Positions 22,518-37,536 of a DNA stretch of 64,000 nucleotides are shown here, piece after piece. The notes below the pieces were generated by a model, which had not been told where the DNA came from, ran no database searches, and saw only the letters and a list, made by a program, of their open reading frames with translations. This stretch comes from Squalus acanthias (Eukaryota). Each line of letters opens with the position of its first letter. The stretch's first letter is position 1. A program made the position numbers and the translations under genes. The stretch is taken from NCBI GenBank assembly GCA_030390025.1, contig CM059431.1, positions 125,428,001 to 125,492,000 of the forward strand, given 5' to 3'.

Positions 22518-23119
22518 GTGTACAAGGCTCAGCAAGACCCAAAAGCTAAAATGTACAGCCTGCCCACTCCTAGATGAACCTTTAAATGCAATGTGGCTAA
22601 GGGTCCTTTAAATATCCCGAGTGGAAATGAGTCATCAATGATGTCATCAGACCCACACCATGTAATAGGGCTGGGAAACACGCTGGCCTGACTTAATAGG
22701 CGCCATTACGGGAAAGTCACTCTGAGGAGCGTAATGAAAAGAACAACGGAGCTGATAAGTCCCCGGGTCCTGATGGACTTCATCCTAGGGTCTTAAAAGA
22801 AGTGGCTAGTGAGATAGTTGATACGTTGGTTTTAATTTTCCAAAATTCCCTAGATTCGGGGAAGGTTCCATTAGATTGGAAAATAGCGAATGTAACTCCT
22901 TTATTCAAAAAGGGAAGGAGACAGAAAGCAGGAAACTACAGGCCAGTTAGCTTAACATCTGTCATAGGGAAGATGTTAGAAGCTATTATTAAAGACGTTA
23001 TAGCAGGGCATTTAGAAAAGTTCAAAGTAATCAGGCAGAGTCAACATGGTTTTGTGCAAGGGAAATCATGTTTAACCAATTTATTGGAGTTCTTTGAGGA
23101 AGTAACATGTGCTGTGGAT

Positions 23120-24716
23120 TGTAAGGGATACTCTCCTGACCCTGCGTGTCTCGTGGCCTGTGAGGTTCACGCGGCTCTGTGCAGCCTGTATGTCAGTGCG
23201 GGTCTAGGCCTGGTCTCCAGCCAGTCTGGGAACACTAGACACCCCTGTGAGTGGTTCGAATCACTCTCCCTTACGGTTCTAGACACTGGACTTAGATGCG
23301 AGAGCAGTAATGGAGATAAAAACTCATGTAGACTTGGTTTGAACGGTACGAAATGGAAAATCTTTATTGCATGATACTTAAAATTATGAAATACATGTCA
23401 TATGCACAGATTAATGACAGTACAATCTTACAAACAGTTATAATCACTCTTAGGGAAACGAGGAACGACCAGCACAACGTAAATAGGGCACACATTACAA
23501 ATATCCTTAAACTTTAAACCCTCCCCTATCAATAACTATCCTAAAACTAGCTTCGTAGGATCCCGAGACTCATGCTCACCACTCGTAATAACTCGGAGAA
23601 AATCCCGAATAGCTGATCGGATGTTTTTCACCGCAGCACCCACGTGTTGGTCAGGAGATCTCCTGGTCCCACTTGTTTACTGCTTCTGCTGCTCGGTCAG
23701 TCGGCTGGACCGTCCGCTGTAGTGAAGACCTCTGTTGGTTGGATACAGGGTATGGTGGAGCACCGTTGTCAATATCGCTGATACGATGTGTTTGCACAGT
23801 CCAGTTATCATCGATGCAATATGTCTTGTTAAAGAAGAAAACTTCCTGTCGAGAAGACTTGGCTGATCGACCTACAGGCGCGGTCGGGATTTACTGACCG
23901 TGGCGATGGATAAGGTCTTCTTCTCTTCTCCTCTCATCTCATCTCATCTCATCCCGGGCCTTCGGTTCCGCTGCCAGCTACCAACATAGGTCTTTGCAAC
24001 AGTCTTTTACCCAGGAGCAGCCACGATGATAACAGCAGCAAGCGGCAAGAGTCAAGAGCAAAAGAGCAAGAGTCACGAACACGAGGCAAGAGAGCGAATG
24101 GACGGTTTGGGCCTGCAATTATAGTGCACAGTTCTTCCGTTTCCCGCCCAACTACAATGTCCATTCTTTTGTTTAAGGTTTGGCGCCCAAAAATGTCCTG
24201 TATGGGTGATCTCTGTCCTTAATGGGTTTCGGGGCTACTCCTGAATGTTTGAGTACCTGTTAATATTTCTCCCATTGTCAAATCGGTCGGTGTTCCCCCT
24301 GGAGGGGTTTGGGGCTTCCAAGTGTCCTGTATAACTACCTGCTAACGGCTCTCTCATCGTAGAGCCGTTGGGAGTTTACATATTAATGTCCTTTGGATGG
24401 GCCCTTGATGGCTTTCCTTTGTACCTGGGAGACCGATCCCAGTATCGATGTTTATACTGTAAACCCATAATGTCCTGTGTATTGTCTTCACTGTGCTGAA
24501 TCGTTATCGATCCTGCAAAAAAATGTTTATTGGAACGCCATCTTGTCTGCCTGCCGAAAAGTCTCGAATGTTCTGTCACGCGGTGCGGCGGCCATTTTAC
24601 AGGCTGCTTGTGTCCAATTTAAACCTGACAGCATTCCGCTGAAATAAAAGCTGTTTTGAACGAAACTTGTGTTTTCTCCTTATAAAAATGAAATCGCGAT
24701 AATTGCGAATTCTACA
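23120..24716 (-). repeat. 3' LTR (1597 bp)
   Basis: Appears identical to 34095-36131 apart from the SINE. AATAAA on minus at 23363-23368. (GAGAT)n microsatellite near 23930. Confidence 0.95.
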
Positions 24717-24728
24717 GTCCCTCCTGTT
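24717..24728 (-). other. Polypurine tract
   Basis: AACAGGAGGGAC abuts the TG of the 3' LTR. Confidence 0.75.
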
Positions 24729-25140
24729 GATGCGAATAACTCCGCTTATCGTATCAAAAACTCAGTGGTGAGCAATCTTATCTCGATTTCACTCCGAATC
24801 CAGTAAATTAATCCCATAAAATTTTAACTTCACTAGGGTCTCTGTGTCGTCCTTATTTCCCAAGAAAATCACACTTTATATCACCATAGGCATCATTTGC
24901 CCTTAAACTTACACCACTTGTTTTCCTTCCCGGCGTAACCAGGCCGATACCTCACGCATCACCTGTATATTTATCTTTTATTCAAGGGAAGGAAAAACAA
25001 AACCCAAAAAACCAAACAATCAACACCATCACCAAAATAAACAAATCCCGACTCTTAAACATGTCGAGTTTCCAACGTATTTACACTGAGTACAAACTTC
25101 CGCGGCGCACGTGGCGAGCGGGAGTGACGCCGTTTTCCCA

Positions 25141-27492
25141 TTACACTGCGCTCTCATCGTGCACGCGCACGTAACGTTCTCGCCACTCTCCCGTGTTCTC
25201 ATGCTTGGTGAGGCGCTTGTCTCTTTTACAATGTATGAACAAAAGGTATACTACAATAAACACTTGACAGACGACTAAAATGTGGGAGGCTATTCTGACC
25301 CATGAGGGCACTTCAATATTCGTGAACAGATTCCACCACGGTGGAACCACTATGTCCAAAATGTCTGTACCTATCTCGACGGTTTTCTGTTCTAATGTAT
25401 AGAAATGCTTTTGTGACACCGCGACGGCTTTCAGAAGTTTGGTTAAATGCTCGGGGAGAGGGGGAATGAGGTACCCAAAATGTGCGACAAATCGCTGCAA
25501 GTCGGTAAAATTCTCTTTTACTGTGAGATGAACAGTGGATGGTTCAGGGATTGGGATAATTCGCTGTTGTGCTACTTGAACTTCAGCCCTGGGTTTAAAA
25601 CAGAAACTGCTGTCACTCACCGGACACCGGCTACGGTTTCCATGCTGGTAGTGTTGCGCTGCAGTGGTAACACAATATGTTCCACCCCCGATGTATGCTA
25701 CCTGCGGAGGCACATGATCTTGTGCCATTGCCTCCATGGTGCAATTCATGGACTTGGCGTCAGCCGTTCTGAACCCGCACTGTGGTGTTAAAAAGGCATT
25801 CAAGTGCTGGGGGCACAGTATTATGTGTGCTCCCCTGCCACGACAACCAGAGAGATCTGTACCTGTCATCGTTTGCTCCCAGCGGATGACGTAAGGTGGA
25901 ACCGCTGCATAACGAATGTGGGCTCCCCCCTGAATGACACCAATGTTCTCTACCCGATATACCGGGGCGGGCTTTGCTGTGTTGCCCAAAACCGGCATGC
26001 GTAATACTATTCCCATAATAGTATGGTTTGAACGTCCGCAGTCCACGGGGACTGGGTAAGCTTCTGAAGCTAGCCTGAGCTGGCACGGACTTAATGCATT
26101 CTGAAAAGGGTGGAGCGCCCGCAGGTGTTTGTTACTTATCCAGGACGGGACCAAACCTTGTTTTAAATCCTCCAAATTACTGCGGCCCTCGCCCAGTAAC
26201 CACGCCCCGTAAAGCACGCACACCTCGTTCTGCGCAGCTTGATCGGATGCATTCCGATCTTCCCTAATCAGGGCATTTACCGTACGCGCATGTTTCTCCA
26301 GCTCTGCTATAATCTCTTTTAAATGTAGTGTCATGGCTTGGTCCTCGTGCAGACCCGACCCTACCACTTTATTCTCATCTGTAAGAATATCCTTTAACTG
26401 TGTTTTTAAACCATTAATCTGGGTCTGCAGCTCCACACTGTCTAGAGCGTTGACCACAGATGTCCCTGTGTTAAAAGCAGTGAACGCATCGTTCACCAAA
26501 CCCCTTCTTTGCCTCCCTACTTGGTCCAAAACTTCCTGCGGTGCGGTGTATAAACTTGTCTTATCGATTTCTGCAAAATCAAACTCGTAAAATTGCCTGA
26601 ACATCTTGGTCAACAGGACCTGGTACAACTGTTCCGTCTTTTTGGGGCACCACTCTGGTAACCGTACCTCAGTGAGATTTAAAATCACCGAGGCCACCGC
26701 GTAATGTACCCCCTGAAATAGTATCTGGTCTGTGGGGACCAGTACCAAACCGTTCCCGGGTCCCTTACTAGTTTTAGGGCACCCTTCTTCCTCAGTTAGA
26801 ACTACCGGAATCGTGGGCGGGGCTTTGCGTGGGCGCGTAATGAGCTCAGTGGCATTTACTGGGATCGGAGAGTATGGGGCTCCGCACCCCCTGGTGCTCG
26901 CATCCCACCTCATCCCCTGTCCGTTATCCTGCCACTGGTTAATAAAGAATATGGAGATGCCTTTGGGGCAAACGTACTTTGACCCCCACATACAAACATA
27001 AATCCCCTCATCTGGTTCCCACCATTTGTCCCAACAGACTTTCACTTGTCCATCTGTCCCCGTAATTGTCCGATGGGTATTATTACCCAGTCGCTCCCAC
27101 TCAACCGAAGAGTTCCTCATAGTTTTGCTCAGCTTTCGCAGCCACCACCATCGGCTCAATGGGACATTCCCACTGCAGGTCAAACAAATCCGTTTGCCGA
27201 CGGTGACGCTGATCCTGGGTGCGATAATCCGTACTTTGGGGCACATTAAAGAAGTCTCTCTGTAGGCGAACCCCGATGTGCTGGAATACTCCGTTGAGTT
27301 CGTTCCCAGCCATCCTGGCCACCTTCCCTTGTGGAAGTAGGTGCTGGTCCCTTCTGCCTTCCGTCTTCCGGTCCCATCCACCGCGATGGGGGCCGTGTCC
27401 CCGGAACATCCAAACACCACGACATCCTTGGTGAGGCCCCGATAGGCCAATCCACATCCGATTGCCACGAGCAAAACTAGAAGTCGTTCCAT
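25141..27492 (-). CDS. env: Envelope glycoprotein, 783 aa, intact: signal peptide, Ig-like domain, F-like class I fusogen, TM
   Basis: Hydrophobic N-terminus, furin site RQRR/GLV (aa 327-330), heptad repeats, Cys-rich region, TM (ILVVCQVFIVVYLLFI), several NxS/T sequons. Candidate splice acceptor TCTATCTGATCACAG|G lies 13 nt upstream of the ATG. Confidence 0.9.
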   Translation of the reverse strand: MERLLVLLVAIGCGLAYRGLTKDVVVFGCSGDTAPIAVDGTGRRKAEGTSTYFHKGRWPGWLGTNSTEYSSTSGFAYRETSLMCPKVRIIAPRISVTVGKRICLTCSGNVPLSRWWWLRKLSKTMRNSSVEWERLGNNTHRTITGTDGQVKVCWDKWWEPDEGIYVCMWGSKYVCPKGISIFFINQWQDNGQGMRWDASTRGCGAPYSPIPVNATELITRPRKAPPTIPVVLTEEEGCPKTSKGPGNGLVLVPTDQILFQGVHYAVASVILNLTEVRLPEWCPKKTEQLYQVLLTKMFRQFYEFDFAEIDKTSLYTAPQEVLDQVGRQRRGLVNDAFTAFNTGTSVVNALDSVELQTQINGLKTQLKDILTDENKVVGSGLHEDQAMTLHLKEIIAELEKHARTVNALIREDRNASDQAAQNEVCVLYGAWLLGEGRSNLEDLKQGLVPSWISNKHLRALHPFQNALSPCQLRLASEAYPVPVDCGRSNHTIMGIVLRMPVLGNTAKPAPVYRVENIGVIQGGAHIRYAAVPPYVIRWEQTMTGTDLSGCRGRGAHIILCPQHLNAFLTPQCGFRTADAKSMNCTMEAMAQDHVPPQVAYIGGGTYCVTTAAQHYQHGNRSRCPVSDSSFCFKPRAEVQVAQQRIIPIPEPSTVHLTVKENFTDLQRFVAHFGYLIPPLPEHLTKLLKAVAVSQKHFYTLEQKTVEIGTDILDIVVPPWWNLFTNIEVPSWVRIASHILVVCQVFIVVYLLFIHCKRDKRLTKHENTGEWRERYVRVHDESAV

Positions 27493-27775
27493 CCTTCCTT
27501 GGTTCCTGTGATCAGATAGAATGAGGTAGCCAGCCTCGCAAAAAGTCTCTGGCTTTTGTGAAGGGTGAGCGGGTCCCCTGACCTCGCCTCACGTAAACTT
27601 CAACGTTTGCTAAATAGACTTCCTCTAAACCTAGCCTTAAAACTCCCATCATTTTATCGTTATCTGTTAAAACACTACAAACTTAACCTTCTTAAAACTA
27701 CTTAAAACTTTAAACTAAAACTTAAAACCTTAAACTAATAACTTTACAATGCCGCCCGTTCTCAGGGCGGCCCCT

Positions 27776-30700
27776 TTAAATCCTGAGAAGGCTGCTGCGA
27801 GCTCTTCCCGACGGTGGGAGGGCACTGACCCTTCCCTCTGATCTGCCGCAGCCTGTTGCTGCGCTGACCCTTTCCTCTGATCTGCCGCAGCCTGTTACTG
27901 CTTCGATGTGGCCTGTCTCTACCCGGGTTATCTTAACCTGAAACTTACGCCCTGGGGCAGCCTGTGGACCTGACCACGTCTTCCTGGGCTGGGGTACTCT
28001 GCTTGACCTACGGGGAATTGCTATGGGCGGGGGCTCCGTGACGGACGGACCGGGTCCCGAGACCTTCAACGGGATGACCTGGGGTTCCATCACAGGCGCC
28101 AGCCCCGCCTCCGCTGACTCCGCCTCCCTAACCTCGGGGCTGGCAGTTCGGGGCCCCGCCCTGCTCGGCCCAGCAGGCGGCCCTTCACTCGCGAACTCTG
28201 CCTCCCCTGAGGACTGGACGTTCAGAGCGGGCGGCCACACCTCTGGGAACCACATAGCGGCTGGCCCGGCCTCCTCTAGCTCCTTCCTCCTGCTGTCGGG
28301 ACCTGCAGCTTGTGTGTCCACCCCGTATGGATCTCTACCTAGCGGCCCCAATCCTTCCAGACCGTTCCTCTGAAACCACCCGTCATCATCACTATGCTCA
28401 TCTGCACTATCCTCATCTGACCAGGGTACCCTGGGGTCCTCGTCATCTAACCCCCAACTCCAGAAAAACGCTGCATGATCGTCCGGGATGTCCCTTCCCC
28501 TGATGCAAGCTGCTACGCCTGCCTGTGTGCCTTGTGGTCCTACCTGGGGCTGTGTTTTCCCATTGGCGGGATTTACCCCTGTAGTTTTCCCTTGCGCACC
28601 CGGCTGGTACAGTTTACATTGGTTTATGTGGAACCACTTAGTGCGCCGAGGTACTTTTACGGCGTAAACCATGGGACTCGCCTTGTCTACAATGTTGTAG
28701 GGTCCCATATACAGTGGTTCCAGACTCCCTACTCTGGCGTAGTTTCTGACCATGACCTGGTCTCCTACTTCCCACTCCCGCGTTTTGCGGGGTTCCAGCA
28801 ACAAGCGATTGCCCTGGTGCTGCCTTCCCATGTTCCCAGCCGCCTGCTCATAAACTTGCTTCAGGCGCTCCAAGAGAGTTTGGGCGAACTTGTCCCTGCT
28901 GATCTCTTGAAGCTGACCCTCAGTGAGCACCGGGGCTAGCACATGGGTGGGGGTTCGCATGAGCCTGCCGGTCATTACCTCGTGCGGGGAGTACCCCGTA
29001 CTTTTTGACTGACTGGCCCGGACCCCCATGAGGACTAAAGGCAGAACTTCCGCCCATTTTTGGGGCGAGTTCCTAGTCTCTTTCCTCAATTTCTCCTTCA
29101 GGGTCCGGTTCATACGTTCAACAATCCCGGATGACTTGGGATTGTGTGCTACGTGCCACTTCCCTTCAATGCCCAAAAGCATGAGGGTGTTCTGCATCAC
29201 CTGGCCGGTGAAATGACTCCCTTGGTCTGACTCCACGAAACGGGGGAGTCCCCACCGCGAGAACACTTCCCGGACCAAGATTTTTGCTGTACCCAGTGCC
29301 GTAGCTGTTCGACAAGGGAAGGCTTCCACCCACTTGGAAAACACATCCACCAGGACGAGGCAGTACTTATAACCTCCCTGGGTGGTGGGCAGGGGTCCTA
29401 TATAGTCGATCTGTATCGACTGCCATGGTCCCTCTACCCTTCTTACGTGTCCCATGGGCACCTTCCTTTTCTGGGGGTCTGGGTTGTTTGCAGCGCACAC
29501 AAGACAGTTTGCACAGAACTCGCGGACTTGTTCCCTGAGCCCTGGCCACCATCCCGCTTGCTCTACCCGTTGCCAGGTAACCTCGGGCCCGGGGTGCCCT
29601 GCCCCTGGTCCCTCGTGAGCCAACTGGAGGAATTCCCTCCTGTGCTGCTGCGGCACAACCCACTGCTCCTCGCGGAACAGCATGCCTTCCTTAACTGAGA
29701 GGGTTGCCGTACTGTACGGACCTTCTACCTGCCTCCCCTCAGCAATCGTTTTTAGGACTGCTTTTAGGGCGGGATCCTGGGCTTGGACGGTCTTAAGGTC
29801 TAGGGGCAATGCTACCCTGGTGTTCCCGGTATTCCCGTCCCCACCTCGGACCGCTGCTATGGGTCCGGTTCTATAGGGGTTCCAGAAAGTACCGTCGCGG
29901 GCACCCTCCCTGGCTAGCGCATCCGCCTGCCGGTTGCCCTCCCCACGGGGCTCTGTGGAGGAGTGAGCTTTCACCTTATGGATGAAAATCTCCCCTTCCT
30001 CCCCTACTGCTGCTGCTAAGATCTTCTCCAGCAAGGGCTTTACCGTTAAAGGTCGCCCGTCCGCGGAGGTGTATCCACGGCGGGACCAAATGGCCAGGTA
30101 TTCCGTACACGAATTGCAGGTGAACATACTGTCCGAGCAAATCGTGTATGGGGTTGGGAAAATGTCTGGGTGGGTTACCACGTACACCACGGCAGACAGC
30201 TCAGCCTGCTGCGCGCTCATGGTGCTAGGGAGCTTGATCGCCAGGGCAAGGTCTGCCGCAGGGTCATAAACTCCACACCCTGTGAGTCGCTCGCCAGCAG
30301 ATACTGTGCTAGACCCATCAACATAAATCTCGCGCCCAGTGGGATGTATCCCGGCCCGTAAACCTATGTTGACGTCCCACACCCCCTCCACCGAACACCG
30401 GTGGGCTGTACCGGGGTATACCAAATTGGCCGCAAGCCTGGGCTCGCAAAGACCTTTTACTCTGATGTCCAACTGGGAGAGAAGAAGGGTCCAACGCGCA
30501 ATGCGTGCGCTGCTTACGGTCCCGTCTTTAATCCTCCCATCCAGAAGCATCTTAGTTGGTGTGTGATGTGTGAGGAGAGTGATGGGAGAGAGCCCTGTGA
30601 AGATCGCTGATCTTTTCACAGCCCAATGCGTGGCTAAAAGGTGCCTTTCGCAATTGGAAAAACTTCTCTCCACATCCGTTAATACCCTGGATGAATAGAC

Positions 30701-32278
30701 AACCGGCCTCAGCTTGCCGTGACGCTCTTGGAGCAGCACGGCGCTTAAGCTGTCTCCGCTGGCAGCTACCTCCAGGAAAAACTCCTTCCCCCCATCTATG
30801 GCCCCTAAGGCTGGCGCGGTCTGCAGATCCCTTTTTAACTTCTCGAAGGCTGCTTGGCAGCCCTCGTCCCAAAGCCACTCTACTCCCTTATGGAGGAGTC
30901 GGAGGAGCGGTGCCGCTGTGGCCGCATAATCCTCGATAAAATCCCTGCAGTAACCGGTCAGTCCCAAGAAGGACCTCACACCCCTTACGTTGTTGGGAAT
31001 CGGTAATTCTTGCACCGACTCCCTCCTTGCTTTGTCTATGGCTCTTTCCCCAGCGCGTAGGGTCAGTCCCAGGAATTTTACTTCCTGCTGACCGATACGT
31101 GCTTTCTTTGGGTTTACTTTAAAACCCTTTCTCGCTAACAGCTCCAATAACTCGTCCAGCAGTGGTCCGTGCTCCTCCCTTGAGTCCGTAAATAGGAGCA
31201 AATCATCCACATACTGTACTATCTGATTGGGCTGACTAAACTCCTTTAAACTTCCTGCCATACACTGGTGAAAAATACTGGGGCTATTGTGGAAACCTTG
31301 TGGCAAGCAGTTCCACGTGTACTGTTGCCCTTTAAACGTAAAGGCAAACTTGTACTGGTCCTCTCGCCGCAGCGGGATGGACCAAAAACCGTTCGAGATA
31401 TCCAGCACCGTGAACGTGGTCGCGGACGCTGGGATGCTCCCTATTAGGTCAGCAACTGCTGCTACTGTGGGCGCGCAGGCGGGGATGTTACTGTTAAGGA
31501 CTCTGTAGTCCACCGTGGCTCTCCACGAATTATCCGGCTTCCTAACCGGCCATAATGGGGAGTTCACGTGTGTGGCTATCGGCCTCAACACGCCCTGCTG
31601 CACCAAGGAAGACATTGCTGCCTCCATATCGGGTTCTGCTTCTTTGGGGAAGTTATACTGCTTTTGGGGTCGGGTCATGGGGTCCCCATCTACGCTGACC
31701 TCAAACCCGACCACCCTCCCACAATCGTGCTTGTGGGTTGCAAACGCGTGCATATTATCTGTCACGTACGTTTGCATGTCCGTTGGGACATCTGCGACCA
31801 TAAGCCTGAGGTCGTAGCCTCCGGATGGCTGTACGGTACACAGGACCCCTGTTTCTTCCTCCCCTTGAATTACCATTACCTCGCCTTTTTCCCCTTTAGC
31901 CCCCCAGAGACAGTGATTTCTGAGGTCCACGAGGATCCCGTGTCCCGCTAGCAGATCGGACCCGAGAATACCTCTTCCACCCCCCTTTTGCCATGCCATC
32001 AGTATACACTTCCACTTAAGGCGAAGTGTCCCTAAACGAATGGATAGCGGGAGGGAAAACGTGCCAGCCTGTTCTTTCCCTGTGAACCCTGCTAGCGTGA
32101 ATGGGACCTTGGTAGATAGCGGCGAGTCAAAAGGGTCATCTGTATGGATTATGGTGCAAGAAGCTCCCGTGTCCAACAAATAACTGCCCTTTTGTTTCTC
32201 TACCTCCATCTCCACCACAGGTCACCTCCACGCATCATAGCTGAGCGGACACAGGTAGACGGGCTGTGCTGGTTCTAG
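27776..32278 (-). CDS. pol: Pol (PR-RT-degenerate RH-RNase H-IN plus long C-terminal tail), in frame with gag. One extra TGA at 32222-32224; open from 32218
   Basis: LLDTGAS; LPQGF, YVDDLL; IYVDGSS/SAQQAEL/CSDS/GNRQAD; HHCC zinc motif; IDYIG, ESDQG, VERMNRTLK; GPY. Confidence 0.93.
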
Positions 32279-34090
32279 TCATGGGGCACTATTAGACGGT
32301 CCTGCGGCACCTACGGGGCCGGTTGCGACCGCCACCTGTCCACGCGCATTCAAAACCATCTTGCGCATGACTCCTAACACTGCCTCGAGGTCTTCGGGAG
32401 AGGTGGGTGCCTTTGCTTCCTTAGCCGGGACAGGCGCCTGGGCTCGGACCGCGGGATTTTTATCCTTGGAATCCTTCCAAGGGTTCCTGCAGTGCTTGCG
32501 CCAGTGCCCTGTCTTCCCACACCCGTAACAGGCATTACTTGCCTGTGGGGCGCGATTACCCTCCTGATGCCACTCTCTTTGAGCCGGGGCTGCGGGTCGT
32601 ACCTCATGTACTCTTCCCTTAAAGGGACGTGTTGCCATACCCCTTATGTTACGGTAACCTAACGTGAGTCGATTCAAGACCGACTCTTCCGTAAGGTTGA
32701 GGTCATTGGGATCGAACCAGGCTTTTGCCTGCTCTCTAACGGCTGGTAAACTGTTGGCTATTATGCACCTAAGCCAATGAATTAAAGCGGCGCCTTCCAC
32801 ATCTTCGCGCTCGGGCGCACCTAGACAGCTGCGCTCATATACTGGCCACAGCCTGTCGGCAAAAACCTTCGGGGGTTCTCCCTCCATCTGCACTGTCTGT
32901 CCCACTCTAGCAAACGGACCTCCGTCGTTCGCTCCCACTACTTCTAGGACCTCATTTTTCAATTCCTCATAACTTTTATTACCCCTCTTGCTATCGCCTG
33001 AGAGACACTGAAGGACCGAGCTATCTAATGAGAACAGCAGCATTTTTGCTGTCTCCCCATCATCGCAGCCGTTGATGGCTGCGGCTTGCTCAACTTCCCT
33101 AAAATGTACGGAAGGGTCGTCTATCTCGGTCAGCTTCCTTACGTGGTTTATCATAGCCCTCAGCTGATGTGAACTGTGAGGCAACACCAGCTGTCCGAGG
33201 AGATCCCCCGGTTCTTCCCCACCGTTTCTGCTTGGGCCCCTTTTAATCCCCGTTACTGGATACAACGATCCCTTTTCTACCTCCTTTTCAACGGGCTCTT
33301 TTGTTTCTTCCGTTGCTTCCTCCCTAACCCAGGTTTCTGAATAGCTGGGTGGCGCGGAGGGCGCAGTGGCTACTACCTCTTCTGCTTTACTTGGTGGGGA
33401 ATTTCTAAATCTCTCATTTACTAGCGGCTGGCGTGCCGACGGATTAATAAGGCACACCATGCCGTTCGCATTATTCACGGCCTTTTTGAGGCTCTCTATC
33501 TCTTTTTCGCAGGCGCTATGGTCGGCTCCCTGAAACTTATCCTCAAGGGCCAACTTATACGCCGACCTAACCCCCATTAAGCTCTCTTCTTGAGTTCTTA
33601 TCTGGGCAGCTTGACGGTTACATCTTTCCTTCATCCTACTCTCGTTTAATTTTGCTTCAGTGATCTGGCACTCGAGATACTCTACCCTTGTTTTAAGGTA
33701 ACTGGAGACTTCCTGGCTTTCCTGGCGTAACTCATTTAAACTCTTAATGAGCGCCTCCCCTCCAGAAACCTTCTCCTCCATTTCCTCCTCTAACTGCTTG
33801 ATTCGAGCGGTTAGCGCTGTATTGGTCTGGTTTGAAATCTGAACCTGCCTTTTGTAGCACATAAGCCAGACTGCTTTCTCAACTGCCTTTTTATGCTCCT
33901 TACTATCCGTCCACCTTTCAGCTGCCTCTAGTGGGCTCTTATCCGCTAACAGTTCGCTTATCCACTTTTTCGTTAGATTAACCTTTCCAAATACGTAATC
34001 CGCTATCTTTTCCTGCATCACATTTCGTACAGTCATTCCAAAATCTAACACACTACCCTCTCGCTGCCAGTGTCCTGCCGCGGTCGCCAT
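32279..34090 (-). CDS. gag: Gag, 603 aa: coiled-coil N-terminal half, late motif, capsid-like region, one CCHC zinc knuckle
   Basis: CYGCGKTGHWRKHC knuckle, PSAPPSY motif, position between PBS and pol. Close paralog at 56635-58443. Confidence 0.9.
   Translation of the reverse strand: MATAAGHWQREGSVLDFGMTVRNVMQEKIADYVFGKVNLTKKWISELLADKSPLEAAERWTDSKEHKKAVEKAVWLMCYKRQVQISNQTNTALTARIKQLEEEMEEKVSGGEALIKSLNELRQESQEVSSYLKTRVEYLECQITEAKLNESRMKERCNRQAAQIRTQEESLMGVRSAYKLALEDKFQGADHSACEKEIESLKKAVNNANGMVCLINPSARQPLVNERFRNSPPSKAEEVVATAPSAPPSYSETWVREEATEETKEPVEKEVEKGSLYPVTGIKRGPSRNGGEEPGDLLGQLVLPHSSHQLRAMINHVRKLTEIDDPSVHFREVEQAAAINGCDDGETAKMLLFSLDSSVLQCLSGDSKRGNKSYEELKNEVLEVVGANDGGPFARVGQTVQMEGEPPKVFADRLWPVYERSCLGAPEREDVEGAALIHWLRCIIANSLPAVREQAKAWFDPNDLNLTEESVLNRLTLGYRNIRGMATRPFKGRVHEVRPAAPAQREWHQEGNRAPQASNACYGCGKTGHWRKHCRNPWKDSKDKNPAVRAQAPVPAKEAKAPTSPEDLEAVLGVMRKMVLNARGQVAVATGPVGAAGPSNSAP
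34072..34089 (-). other. Primer-binding site, tRNA-Arg(TCG)
   Basis: TGGCGACCGCGGCAGGAC is complementary to the 3' 18 nt of vertebrate tRNA-Arg-TCG (…GTCCTGCCGCGGTCG-CCA, recalled from memory). It starts 5 nt after the LTR end. Confidence 0.85.
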
Positions 34091-34094
34091 TTTC

Positions 34095-36131
34095 TGTAAG
34101 GGATACTCTCCTGACCCTGCGTGTCTCGTGGCCTGTGAGGTTCACGCGGCTCTGTGCAGCCTGTATGTCAGTGCGGGTCTAGGCCTGGTCTCCAGCCAGT
34201 CTGGGAACACTAGACACCCCTGTGAGTGGTTCGAATCACTCTCCCTTACGGTTCTAGACACTGGACTTAGATGCGAGAGCAGTAATGGAGATAAAAACTC
34301 ATGTAGACTTGGTTTGAACGGTACGAAATGGAAAATCTTTATTGCATGATACTTAAAATTATGAAATACATGTCATATGCACAGATTAATGACAGTACAA
34401 TCTTACAAACAGTTATAATCACTCTTAGGGAAACGAGGAACGACCAGCACAACGTAAATAGGGCACACATTACAAATATCCTTAAACTTTAAACCCTCCC
34501 CTATCAATAACTATCCTAAAACTAGCTTCGTAGGATCCCGAGACTCATGCTCACCACTCGTAATAACTCGGAGAAAATCCCGAATAGCTGATCGGATGTT
34601 TTTCACCGCAGCACCCACGTGTTGGTCAGGAGATCTCCTGGTCCCACTTGTTTACTGCTTCTGCTGCTCGGTCAGTCGGCTGGACCGTCCGCTGTAGTGA
34701 AGACCTCTGTTGGTTGGATACAGGGTATGGTGGAGCACCGTTGTCAATATCGCTGATACGATGTGTTTGCACAGTCCAGTTATCATCGATGCAATATGTC
34801 TTGTTAAAGAAGAAAACTTCCTGTCGAGAAGACTTGGCTGATCGACCTACAGGCGCGGTCGGGATTTACTGACCGTGGCGATGGATAAGGTCTTCTTCTC
34901 TTCTCCTCTCATCTCATCTCATCTCATCCCGGGCCTTCGGTTCCGCTGCCAGCTACCAACATAGGTCTTTGCAACAGTCTTTTACCCAGGAGCAGCCACG
35001 ATGATAACAGCAGCAAGCGGCAAGAGTCAAGAGCAAAAGAGCAAGAGTCACGAACACGAGGCAAGAGAGCGAATGGACGGTTTGGGCCTGCAATTATAGT
35101 GCACAGTTCTTCCGTTTCCCGCCCAACTACAATGTCCATTCTTTTGTTTAAGGTTTGGCGCCCAAAAATGTCCTGTATGGGTGATCTCTGTCCTTAATGG
35201 GTTTCGGGGCTACTCCTGAATGTTTGAGTACCTGTTAATATTTCTCCCATTGTCAAATCGGTCGGTGTTCCCCCTGGAGGGGTTTGGGGCTTCCAAGTGT
35301 CCTGTATAACTACCTGCTAACGGCTCTCTCATCGTAGAGCCGTTGGGAGTTTACATATTAATGTCCTTTGGATGGGCCCTTGATGGCTTTCCTTTGTACC
35401 TGGGAGACCGATCCCAGTATCGATGTTTATACTGTAAACCCATAATGTCACGGTGGCATAGTGGTTAGCACTGGTGCTTCACAGCGCCAGGGACCCGGGT
35501 TCGAATCTGGACTCGGGCGACTGTCTGTGTGGAGTTTGCACATTCTCCCCGTGTCTGCGTGGGTTTCCTCCGGGTGCTCCGGTTTCCTCCCACAGTCCAA
35601 AAATGTGCGGGTTAGGTTGATTTGGCTATGATAAATTGACCCTTAGTGTTAGGGGGGGATTAAATATGTGGGGTTACGGGGATAGGATGGGATATGTTAG
35701 GGGGAATTAAATACGTGGGGTTACGGGGATAGGGTGGGATATGTGTTGGTGCAGGCTCGATGGGGATTCTGTGTGAGAAAAGCAGGGACAGGGTACTGCA
35801 TTTGGATGATCAGCCATGATCGTATTGAATGGTGGAGCAGGCTCGACGGGCCGAATGGCCTACTCCTGCTCCTAGTTTCTATGTTTCTATGTTTCTATGT
35901 CTTCACTGTGCTGAATCGTTATCGATCCTGCAAAAAAATGTTTATTGGAACGCCATCTTGTCTGCCTGCCGAAAAGTCTCGAATGTTCTGTCACGCGGTG
36001 CGGCGGCCATTTTACAGGCTGCTTGTGTCCAATTTAAACCTGACAGCATTCCGCTGAAATAAAAGCTGTTTTGAACGAAACTTGTGTTTTCTCCTTATAA
36101 AAATGAAATCGCGATAATTGCGAATTCTACA
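34095..36131 (-). repeat. 5' LTR (2037 bp including an inserted SINE)
   Basis: Same sequence as the 3' LTR on both sides of 35450-35900. Confidence 0.95.
35450..35900 (+). mobile_element. tRNA-derived V-SINE (HE1-like) with CR1-derived tail
   Basis: A box TGGCATAGTGG, B box GGTTCGAATC, V-domain TGTGTGGAGTTTGCACATTCTCCCCGTGTCTGCGTGGGTTTCCTCCGGG, CR1 3' UTR and (ATGTTTCT)n tail. Confidence 0.9.
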
Positions 36132-37536
36132 GGATAAAGGGGAGCCGGTGGATGTACTGTACTTAGATTTCCAGAAGGCATTTGATAAGGTGCCACATCA
36201 AAGGTTATTGTGGAAAATAAAAGCTCATGGTGTAGGGGGTAACATATTGGCATGGATAGAAGATTGGCTAGCTAACAGGAAACAGAGAGTAGGCATAAAT
36301 GGGTCATTTTCTGATTGGCAAGATGTAACAAGTGGTGTGCCACAGGGATCAGTGCTGGGGCCTCAACTTTTTACAATTTATATAAATGACTTGGATGAAG
36401 GGACCGAAGGTATGGTTGCTAAATTTGCTGATGACAGAAAGATGGGTAGGAAAGTAAATTGTGAAGAGGACATAAGGAGGCTACAAAGGGATATAGATAA
36501 GTTAAGTGAGTGGGCAAAGATCTGGCAAATGGAGTATAATGTGAGAAAATGTGAAGTTGTCCATTTTGACAGGAAGAATAAAAAAGAAGCATATTATCTA
36601 AATGGTGAGAGATTGCAGAGCTCTGAGATGCAGAGGGATCTGGGTGTCCTAGTACATGAATCGCAAAAGGTTACTATGCAGGTACAGCAAGTAATTAAAA
36701 GCTAATAGAATGTTATCGTTTATTGCGAGGGGAATTGAATACAAAAGTAGGGAGGTTATGCTTCAGTTATACAGGGCATTGGTGAGACCACATCTGGAGT
36801 ACAGTGTACAGTATTGGTCTGCTTATTTAAGGAAGGATGTAAATGCAGTTCAGAGAAGGTTTACTAGACTAATACCTGAAATGGGCGGGTTGTCTTATGA
36901 GGAAAGTTTGGACAGGCTAGGCTTGTATCCGCTGGAGTTTAGAAGATTAAGAGGTGACTTGATTGAAACATATAAGATCCTGAGGGGTCTGGACAGGGTG
37001 GATGTGGAGAGGATGTTTCCTCTTGTGGGAGAATCTAGAACTAGAGGTCACTGTTTAAAAGTTTAAGGCAGAGATGAGGAGAAATTTTTTCTCACAGAGG
37101 GTCGTGAGTCTTTGGAACTCTCTTCCTCAGAGGGCGGTGGAAGCAGAGTCTTTGAATATTTTTAAGGCAGAGGCAGATAGATTCTTGGTAAGCAAGGGGG
37201 TGAAAAGTTATCGGGGGTAGGTGGGAATGTGGAGTAATCGGATCAGCCATGATCTTATTGAATGGCGGAGCAGGCTCGTAGGGCCCAGTGGCCTACTCCT
37301 GCTCCTAATTCGTATGTTCGTATCCCGATCCACCACACCAACCACCCGCTCCCGACCCGCCCAGGTAAAGAAAATTCCGGCCATGGAGTTTGAAGTAGTC
37401 GTAATGAACAGTCAGTTTACTTACAATATGATGAATCACCCCGAATCCTCAAATTTAAAAACAATATGGTCAAATTTAATGATCCTGCCAGGCAGGAAAT
37501 GGGTGGCAGTGGGTTGGCTGCCCAGTTTATACACTG

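Follow-up and report, generated by a model that had tools for sequence, protein, structure and literature searches.

A probable immunoglobulin-type domain at the N-terminus of an F-like envelope protein in a young endogenous retrovirus of Squalus acanthias

We know of no account of how the F-type envelope proteins (Envs) of retroelements find their target cell, and a provirus in the genome of the shark Squalus acanthias raises the question of whether such a protein may carry an attachment module of its own. The DNA analyzed here, called the window throughout, is a stretch of 64,000 nucleotides (NCBI GenBank assembly GCA_030390025.1, contig CM059431.1, positions 125,428,001 to 125,492,000 of the forward strand). 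At window positions 23120-36132 it contains a complete provirus, with gag, pol and env between two long terminal repeats (LTRs). The env open reading frame (25141..27492, minus strand, as are all proviral features mentioned below) encodes, according to its translation, 783 amino acids (aa) plus a stop codon. With a probability that we put at roughly 55%, this protein is a class I Env of F-like layout that was provided, within an elasmobranch lineage, with an attachment extension carrying an immunoglobulin (Ig)-like domain.

The domain in question, which is probably of the V/I-set type to judge from motif, profile and language-model results, covers Env aa 85-185 (26938..27240), from PKVRIIAPRISV through GISIFFIN. 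The residues on which the original prediction of an Ig domain was based proved to be exact when checked on the translation: the segment ICLTC ends at C106, the tryptophans of RWWWL are W115-117, DEGIYVC covers positions 161-167, and C106 and C167 are 61 residues apart. In V/I-set domains of the Ig superfamily (IgSF) this distance is about 55-75 residues, the Trp of strand C is expected about 10-15 residues past the first Cys, where W115-117 are found, and the second Cys closes a D-x-G-x-Y-x-C motif, as it does in DEGIYVC. The latter motif occurs only once in the six reading frames of the 64-kb window, namely at Env 161-167. In 17 aligned relatives, with 54-74% identity to the window Env, the motif residues show little or no variation, and the columns of C106 and C167 are invariant. 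The Env is rich in Cys and Trp, and composition-preserving shuffling of it produced the pattern C-x(8-14)-W-x(30-65)-D-x-G-x-Y-x-C in 10 of 20,000 cases. This favours an alternative explanation, according to which the fold is not that of an Ig domain and the motif arose by coincidence in a beta domain of a new kind, rich in Cys and Trp. The extra cysteines (103, 153, 175) and the richness in WWW/WW, which are unusual for Ig domains, point in the same direction.

In searches with hidden Markov models (HMMs) of Pfam, Ig_3 was the sole family matching the domain (E 0.013, 16.4 bits, profile positions 5-74 of 78). All 17 aligned relatives matched this family as well at E <= 1, with a best E of 4.3e-4, and the next two families were matched by one member each. 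When a profile built from the 17 relatives was compared with 177,635 solved sequences, the IgV domain of CRTAM came first (4h5s_A, E 0.0044; 3rbg_A, E 0.0096), in an alignment that covers the whole domain (profile positions 17-108 against chain residues 7-97) and has Cys-B, Trp-C and D/E-E-G-x-Y-x-C in register. With the single sequence as query, the best three of five rows from the PDB were Ig domains, at E about 1. According to language-model features from the ESM Atlas, the ten best family-bearing matches of aa 75-195 all belong to the Ig family or clan, with scores of 0.88-0.90, a range that is rated as a lead. A phmmer search over 1.84 billion representative sequences yielded 13 proteins at E <= 0.001, comprising six relatives, two multi-Ig proteins and five repetitive proteins. 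The two multi-Ig proteins, whose Ig content was confirmed, are CD22-like and come from fish (P0010, E 1e-8 over eight stretches; P0013, E 1.4e-4). Of the five repetitive matches, the four other than P0015 were inspected and taken as spurious.

Several results weigh against the presence of an Ig fold. Every Ig_3 score lies below the curated cut-off (13.5-16.4 vs 30 bits), the third match in the profile search of the PDB was the non-Ig protein ArfGAP1 (E 0.034), and the PDB is rich in antibodies, so that Ig rows are favoured by number. Structure prediction with AlphaFold2 gave a mean pLDDT of 40.1 for aa 18-250 (19 sequences) and of 30.5 for the whole Env (16 sequences); the alignments, with 36-80% identity to the query, were probably too shallow. 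When the low-confidence N-terminal model was compared with the PDB by Foldseek, there were no matches at E <= 0.001; the weak rows include many VL/VHH domains at TM 0.39-0.47, and Necl-2 is among them. Comparison of the low-confidence model with 48,161 chains by VIA-align gave no rows at Z >= 5, the best value being 4.6, and Z values below 8 possibly reflect just a common arrangement. The top 50 rows are almost entirely Ig-type sandwiches, with titin, NCAM2, LAG3, CD8alpha and Ig-beta among the top ones (Z 4.0-4.6, 81-100 residues aligned, rmsd 3.0-5.0). Finally, hhalign, for which one CD22-like protein and eight Ig repeats cut from two CD22-like proteins served as targets, aligned the A'-B-C strands only (30-35 columns), at probabilities of 11% and 4.6%.

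The explanation by a new beta domain can draw on the same points, since all HMM scores are sub-threshold, no confident model was obtained, and the fold-search scores fall in a range that the tools rate as unreliable. Yet the Pfam HMM, the PDB profile search, the language-model features and the structural alignment converge on Ig and on nothing else, and the PDB alignment keeps three hallmark positions in register over the whole domain, which argues that a non-Ig fold is quite unlikely. Thus, the predicted Ig domain at aa ~85-185 holds up as the best reading of several independent, individually weak results; the HMMER check proposed for it brought up Ig_3 in each of the 17 relatives but never above the cut-off, and the fold and the C106-C167 pairing are to be taken as predictions. 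We regard an Ig fold of aa 85-185 as likely.

The extension in which this domain lies has nine cysteines (29, 84, 103, 106, 153, 167, 175, 203, 238), all of which are conserved. A disulfide bond would connect C106 and C167. In the CRTAM alignment C103 and C153 lie in the adjacent strands B and E, each on the outer side, and they may therefore form a second disulfide, whereas the odd number of cysteines suggests that one bond is made to the rest of Env. N-glycosylation sequons occur in the Ig-like domain at N127 and N137. The region behind the domain is, as predicted, a Pro/Thr-rich linker (aa 204-245; 26758..26883), with 9 Pro and 5 Thr among its 42 residues, and it includes the sequon N213 as well as C238. 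Before the domain, at Env aa 56-63 (27304-27327), there is a strongly conserved motif, GRWPGWLG-x-NST-x-YSS, several residues of which are invariant among 19 sequences; this segment matches no known family in Pfam.

The capture of the domain, as suggested in the original prediction, is to be taken as a possibility. The exhaustive HMMER search gave no host donor closer than generic Ig repeats (phmmer, over the representatives mentioned above; the host's own Ig genes were outside this search). The best solved match, the CRTAM/nectin-like IgV domain, resembles the Env domain over its full length, including the aligned Cys, Trp and D/E-E-G-x-Y-x-C positions, but the E value is just 0.0044, which is far too distant to name CRTAM as the donor, and the Env domain differs by its three extra cysteines. 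Receptor-binding parts built on an Ig-like beta sandwich are known from the surface subunit (SU) of gammaretroviruses and from gD of herpes simplex virus. These sandwiches are not known to show the Cys-Trp-DxGxYxC signature that is canonical for cellular IgSF domains; moreover, the partner of SU in gammaretroviruses is a short transmembrane subunit of the gamma type, and gD is a protein separate from the fusogen gB.

It should also be considered whether the extension is simply an ordinary, already described part of the Env of lokiretroviruses, since the gene was called a loki Env in the original prediction and the dual RNase H layout of Pol fits this group. Wang and Han (2020; PMC7947760) printed 23 lokiretrovirus consensus Envs in their supplement. 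By-eye comparison covered 22 of these, and since Loki-Lch is without its N-terminus, 21 N-terminally complete Envs were available. In each of the 21 a motif GP-x-x-G-[ILVT] occurs within about 15 aa after the signal sequence, and an R-x-K/R-R site follows about 90-100 aa past this motif. The window Env shows the same spacing between motif and cleavage site (244 to 330), but with ~225 extra residues in front, so that the arm with the Ig-like domain has to be regarded as inserted between signal peptide and F2-like segment. The N-terminal extension thus defined from sequence and comparison with published Envs covers aa 18-243 (26764..27441), and is preceded by a hydrophobic, signal-peptide-like N-terminus (aa 1-19; 27436..27492). 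Since the GP motif directly follows the signal peptide in 21 of the 21 complete Envs of the supplement, leaving no room for an extension, the Ig-like domain does not belong to the standard composition of loki Env as far as these consensus sequences represent it.

The literature points the same way. In the searched passages of PMC7947760, 10.1101/2023.10.26.564294 and PMC13709493 the terms 'immunoglobulin' and 'Ig-like' do not occur (figure 1D of PMC7947760 and the bioRxiv supplements were outside the scope), and 'immunoglobulin' is likewise absent from the searched passages of PMC9040795 and PMC12440569. An Ig-type N-terminal module of F-type Envs is unmentioned in the portions covered of 10.1101/2023.10.26.564294, and searches of the wider literature for such terms found no account of an Ig-bearing F-like Env. 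The statement in the original prediction that no description of this architecture was known therefore agrees with the parts of the lokiretrovirus-related literature that were searched, and the possibility that the extension is an ordinary loki feature can be regarded as largely refuted and extremely improbable. In other respects the window Env resembles the lokiretrovirus Envs documented in PMC7947760. Both are encoded by the one env gene that a retrovirus-like element with two RNase H domains possesses, and both have a signal peptide, a GP-x-x-G-[ILV] motif that opens an F2-like segment of ~90 aa, a cleavage site of the multibasic type, a hydrophobic peptide, a coiled coil and a transmembrane segment. 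They differ in that the signal peptide of the published proteins leads straight to the GP motif, whereas ~225 aa with the Ig-like domain are inserted in the window Env, and in that the Env of Loki-Str matches PF00523 at E 2.2e-7 (PMC7947760), whereas the window Env is without an HMMER match to this family.

Regarding the fusion half of the protein, an F-type layout is present. The F2-like segment (aa 244-330; 26503..26763) starts with GPGNGLVLVP (aa 244-253), includes C282 and has the furin-type site RQRR (aa 327-330; 26503-26514) at its end. Directly after this site, at G331, a hydrophobic fusion-peptide-like stretch begins (aa 331-350; 26443..26502). It would be followed by a helical region resembling heptad repeat A (HRA; aa ~352-434; 26191..26439), a Cys-rich beta region (~aa 470-631) and, before the membrane, a helix resembling heptad repeat B (HRB; aa 683-715; 25348..25446), as the low-confidence whole-Env model has helices at 352-372, 383-434 and 681-711 and strands at 479-632. 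The sequence ends with a transmembrane anchor (aa 731-755; 25228..25302) and a tail of 28 aa. In the ESM Atlas, aa 245-745 gave clusters of 'Fusion glycoprotein F0' (PF00523) first, at 0.92 and with 206 and 201 shared features, which is to be taken as a lead only, and Baculo_F and Gypsy env came next. Counting against an F-type assignment, HMMER gave no match to PF00523 at E <= 10 in the window Env and four relatives, and a PDB profile search with Env found no F protein. The designation 'F-like' is thus sustained by layout and by the language-model lead but not by HMMER, and the fusion half looks F-type by these two properties.

Fusion proteins of the F type are familiar mainly from paramyxoviruses. 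The F proteins of paramyxoviruses and pneumoviruses have a short F2 and are usually partnered by a separate attachment protein; their own Ig-like domain, domain II, is located in F1 and is not N-terminal. The window Env shares with F0 the order of F2, cleavage site, fusion peptide, HRA, beta-rich core, HRB and transmembrane segment, as well as a post-cleavage subunit of similar size (aa 331-783), but there is no sequence similarity between them that HMMER can detect. In the original prediction the protein was contrasted with paramyxovirus F, which usually relies on such a partner. This contrast was overstated, since the F-type proteins of retroelements and baculoviruses already work without a separate attachment protein. 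The Envs of errantiviruses (gypsy) and baculoviruses, which are ESM Atlas neighbours of the window Env, are fusogens of this kind, although their hosts are invertebrates. Hence, what is new here is the Ig-type module and not the single-polypeptide design.

The classification of the element itself is more difficult. Pfam locates RT_RNaseH/RT_RNaseH_2 at 447-579 and RNase_H at 627-770 of Pol, which aligns with the reverse transcriptase (RT)-RNase H of MLV over 182-770. The order of RT, degraded RNase H tether, second RNase H and integrase (IN) is that of lokiretroviruses, but it is also common to canonical retroviruses. Scores of Pol with RT sequences are about equal for Ty3 (244 bits), MLV-type (239) and foamy (217) representatives and far lower for HIV (about 57); such scores, which are no phylogeny, would fit a deep branch. 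Similarity of Env to the F proteins of Mononegavirales, by which loki elements are recognized, was not found by HMMER, and by eye only the short start motif GP-x-x-G-[ILV] is shared with the loki Envs as far as they are printed. In the original lokiretrovirus screen (PMC7947760), none of six cartilaginous-fish genomes was positive, Scyliorhinus torazame being one of them. The annotation of Scyliorhinus torazame includes a 200-aa fragment (P0026) that is 64% identical to the fusion half of the window Env. We may be dealing with a divergent loki element or with a separate lineage. That it represents an unrecognised lineage of F-type-Env retroviruses, active now or recently in sharks and skates, which gained a canonical IgSF domain at the tip of its fusion protein, is a tentative proposal to which we give slightly less than even odds.

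Whether the domain still matters to the element can be judged from its copies. In its own 3.7-Gb genome, env matches were ~100% identical and had open frames in all 57 cases that were scored (of 12,923 first-look candidates), and with a 52%-identical N-terminal fragment as query 150 of 150 matches were scored, out of 5,829 candidates. At least three Env subfamilies are present in this genome, and the motif is kept in all of them. The LTR pair is 100% identical across 1355 + 235 (1590) aligned bases. The provirus family is thus very young and very large, with thousands of copies. Between subfamilies, dN/dS of the Ig region is 0.07-0.27 in the four of eight pairs with finite dS, the other four being saturated, and the Ig-like domain is under purifying selection. 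Between families, amino acid identity to the window amounts to 62-64% in the Ig region, whereas aa 18-84 reach 54%, aa 186-245 57-60% and aa 347-560 85-87%. Stops or truncations are present in many of the divergent copies of this genome, as would be expected if env were a decaying relic and the domain were without present function. The intact frames in all scored subfamily copies, the identical LTRs and dN/dS values well below 1 make this explanation very improbable.

Relatives of the Env were obtained by three word-seeded searches, which yielded 3, 3 and 14 proteins. All named ones are from Rhinoraja, Pristiophorus or Scyliorhinus and none from outside the elasmobranchs, with the proviso that such searches need shared 5-residue words. 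From these sequences, the extension appears to be a lineage-specific addition in a clade of elasmobranch endogenous retroviruses. Public sequencing runs give a similar picture: 14 runs from seven studies, with six organism labels, hold 53-75% of the env 31-mers. Contigs from the runs X1, X5, X9 and X10, which carry four organism labels, are 90-100% identical to the internal region (24718-34200) and cover 29-30 of its 30 bins, the Ig bin included. The only two joints in these contigs, which skip 106 and 155 nt inside pol and gag, were each confined to a single contig from a single run. Two more organism labels show over half of the env words. This distribution suggests that the family is common to several related hosts or has spread between them. 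In sawshark, the gene models P0004, P0005 and P0017 have pieces of this Env family fused to zinc-finger, Niban-1-like and cadherin-related proteins; these are most likely annotation chimeras resulting from proviral insertions.

As to the function of the extension, we infer, besides an Ig fold, cleavage and subunit linkage, above all a role in receptor binding. The protein would be a fusion glycoprotein of class I, laid out like paramyxovirus F, of which the N-terminal (F2-like) subunit is lengthened by about 225 residues, comprising a short Cys-containing segment, one V/I-set-like Ig domain (aa ~85-185) and a glycosylated Pro/Thr-rich stalk. After cleavage of the precursor at RQRR (327-330), the Ig-bearing subunit would be kept on the fusion subunit, by analogy with the disulfide bond between F2 and F1. 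Located at the membrane-distal end, it would bind a cell-surface receptor, and this binding would release the refolding of the fusion subunit. Two negative results have to be set against this proposal: no receptor was found for the putative receptor-binding arm, and all 14 public runs with env 31-mers lack an RNA designation.

In other class I proteins the prefusion core is shielded or stabilised by glycan caps and mucin-like domains, and most other viral captures of IgSF domains are immunomodulators. The Ig-like domain might accordingly serve not in attachment but as a decoy or modulator in immunity, through mimicry of a host IgSF ligand, or as a cap that shields or stabilises the prefusion core. 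The closest solved sequence, that of CRTAM, is an Ig receptor domain of immune cells, and no other part of the extension is as conserved as the Ig domain, whereas receptor-binding parts are often more variable; both observations would suit a decoy or cap. On the other hand, the similarity to CRTAM is too weak for mimicry of one particular ligand. Furthermore, the element, which has reached thousands of copies, has no envelope protein but this one, of which the domain is a covalent part, and no other module obviously suited for binding is seen in the F-type core, whose F2 measures about 90 aa only. We regard a decoy or cap function as unlikely. We conclude that the domain is probably a built-in attachment module for target-cell binding; the most likely mechanism, to which we give about an even chance provided that the fold is of the Ig type, is that the arm forms the receptor-binding head of a protein combining attachment and fusion in one chain.

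The remaining parts of the provirus show some further features. The pol gene (27776..32209) encodes, according to Pfam, a protease, RT, a degraded RNase H (tether), RNase H and an integrase, followed by a long low-complexity tail. This tail consists of ~280 aa after the SH3-like domain of the integrase, is rich in Pro, Gly, Ser and Glu (27779-28620), and matches no Pfam family beyond C-terminal models of integrase; a 39-nt tandem repeat is found in it at 27825-27901. The gag gene (32279..34090) encodes 603 aa when counted from the first ATG. The N-terminal half of Gag is long coiled-coil-like (aa ~80-210) and matches no Pfam family, and a single, weak CCHC knuckle was found (Pfam, E 0.31). A coiled-coil N-terminus was also described (10.1101/2024.03.25.586437) for Gag of the zebrafish loki-related element BHIKHARI. 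The first ATG of gag is only 4 nt past the end of the LTR (…TTACA GAAA ATGGCGACC…; 34077-34095) and overlaps a TGG-starting stretch at the position expected for the primer-binding site, which indicates that the true start of gag may be a later Met.

The 3' LTR is located at 23120..24717 and the 5' LTR at 34095..36132. Although otherwise identical, they differ by ~448 nt of the 5' LTR (35450-35897) that have no counterpart in the 3' LTR and that include a 47-nt tandem repeat at 35647-35744. The provirus adjoins a LINE-like reverse-transcriptase fragment on the plus strand (22802-23371; RVT_1, E 5.3e-7), and thus was probably inserted into an older non-LTR element.

If the proposed explanation is true, the Env of this provirus would be the first F-like fusogen known with a cellular-type Ig receptor-binding head, and it would act as a one-chain machine for attachment and fusion. 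An Ig head between signal peptide and F2 would be a concrete answer, for one lineage, to the question of how F-type Envs of retroelements find their target cell, and would clearly exemplify the accretion of a domain by a class I fusogen. With an env that is intact in many copies, is under purifying selection and exists as subfamilies within one genome, the element is a useful natural system. It would also extend the F-type-Env retroviruses to the cartilaginous fishes, in which the original screen (PMC7947760) had none.

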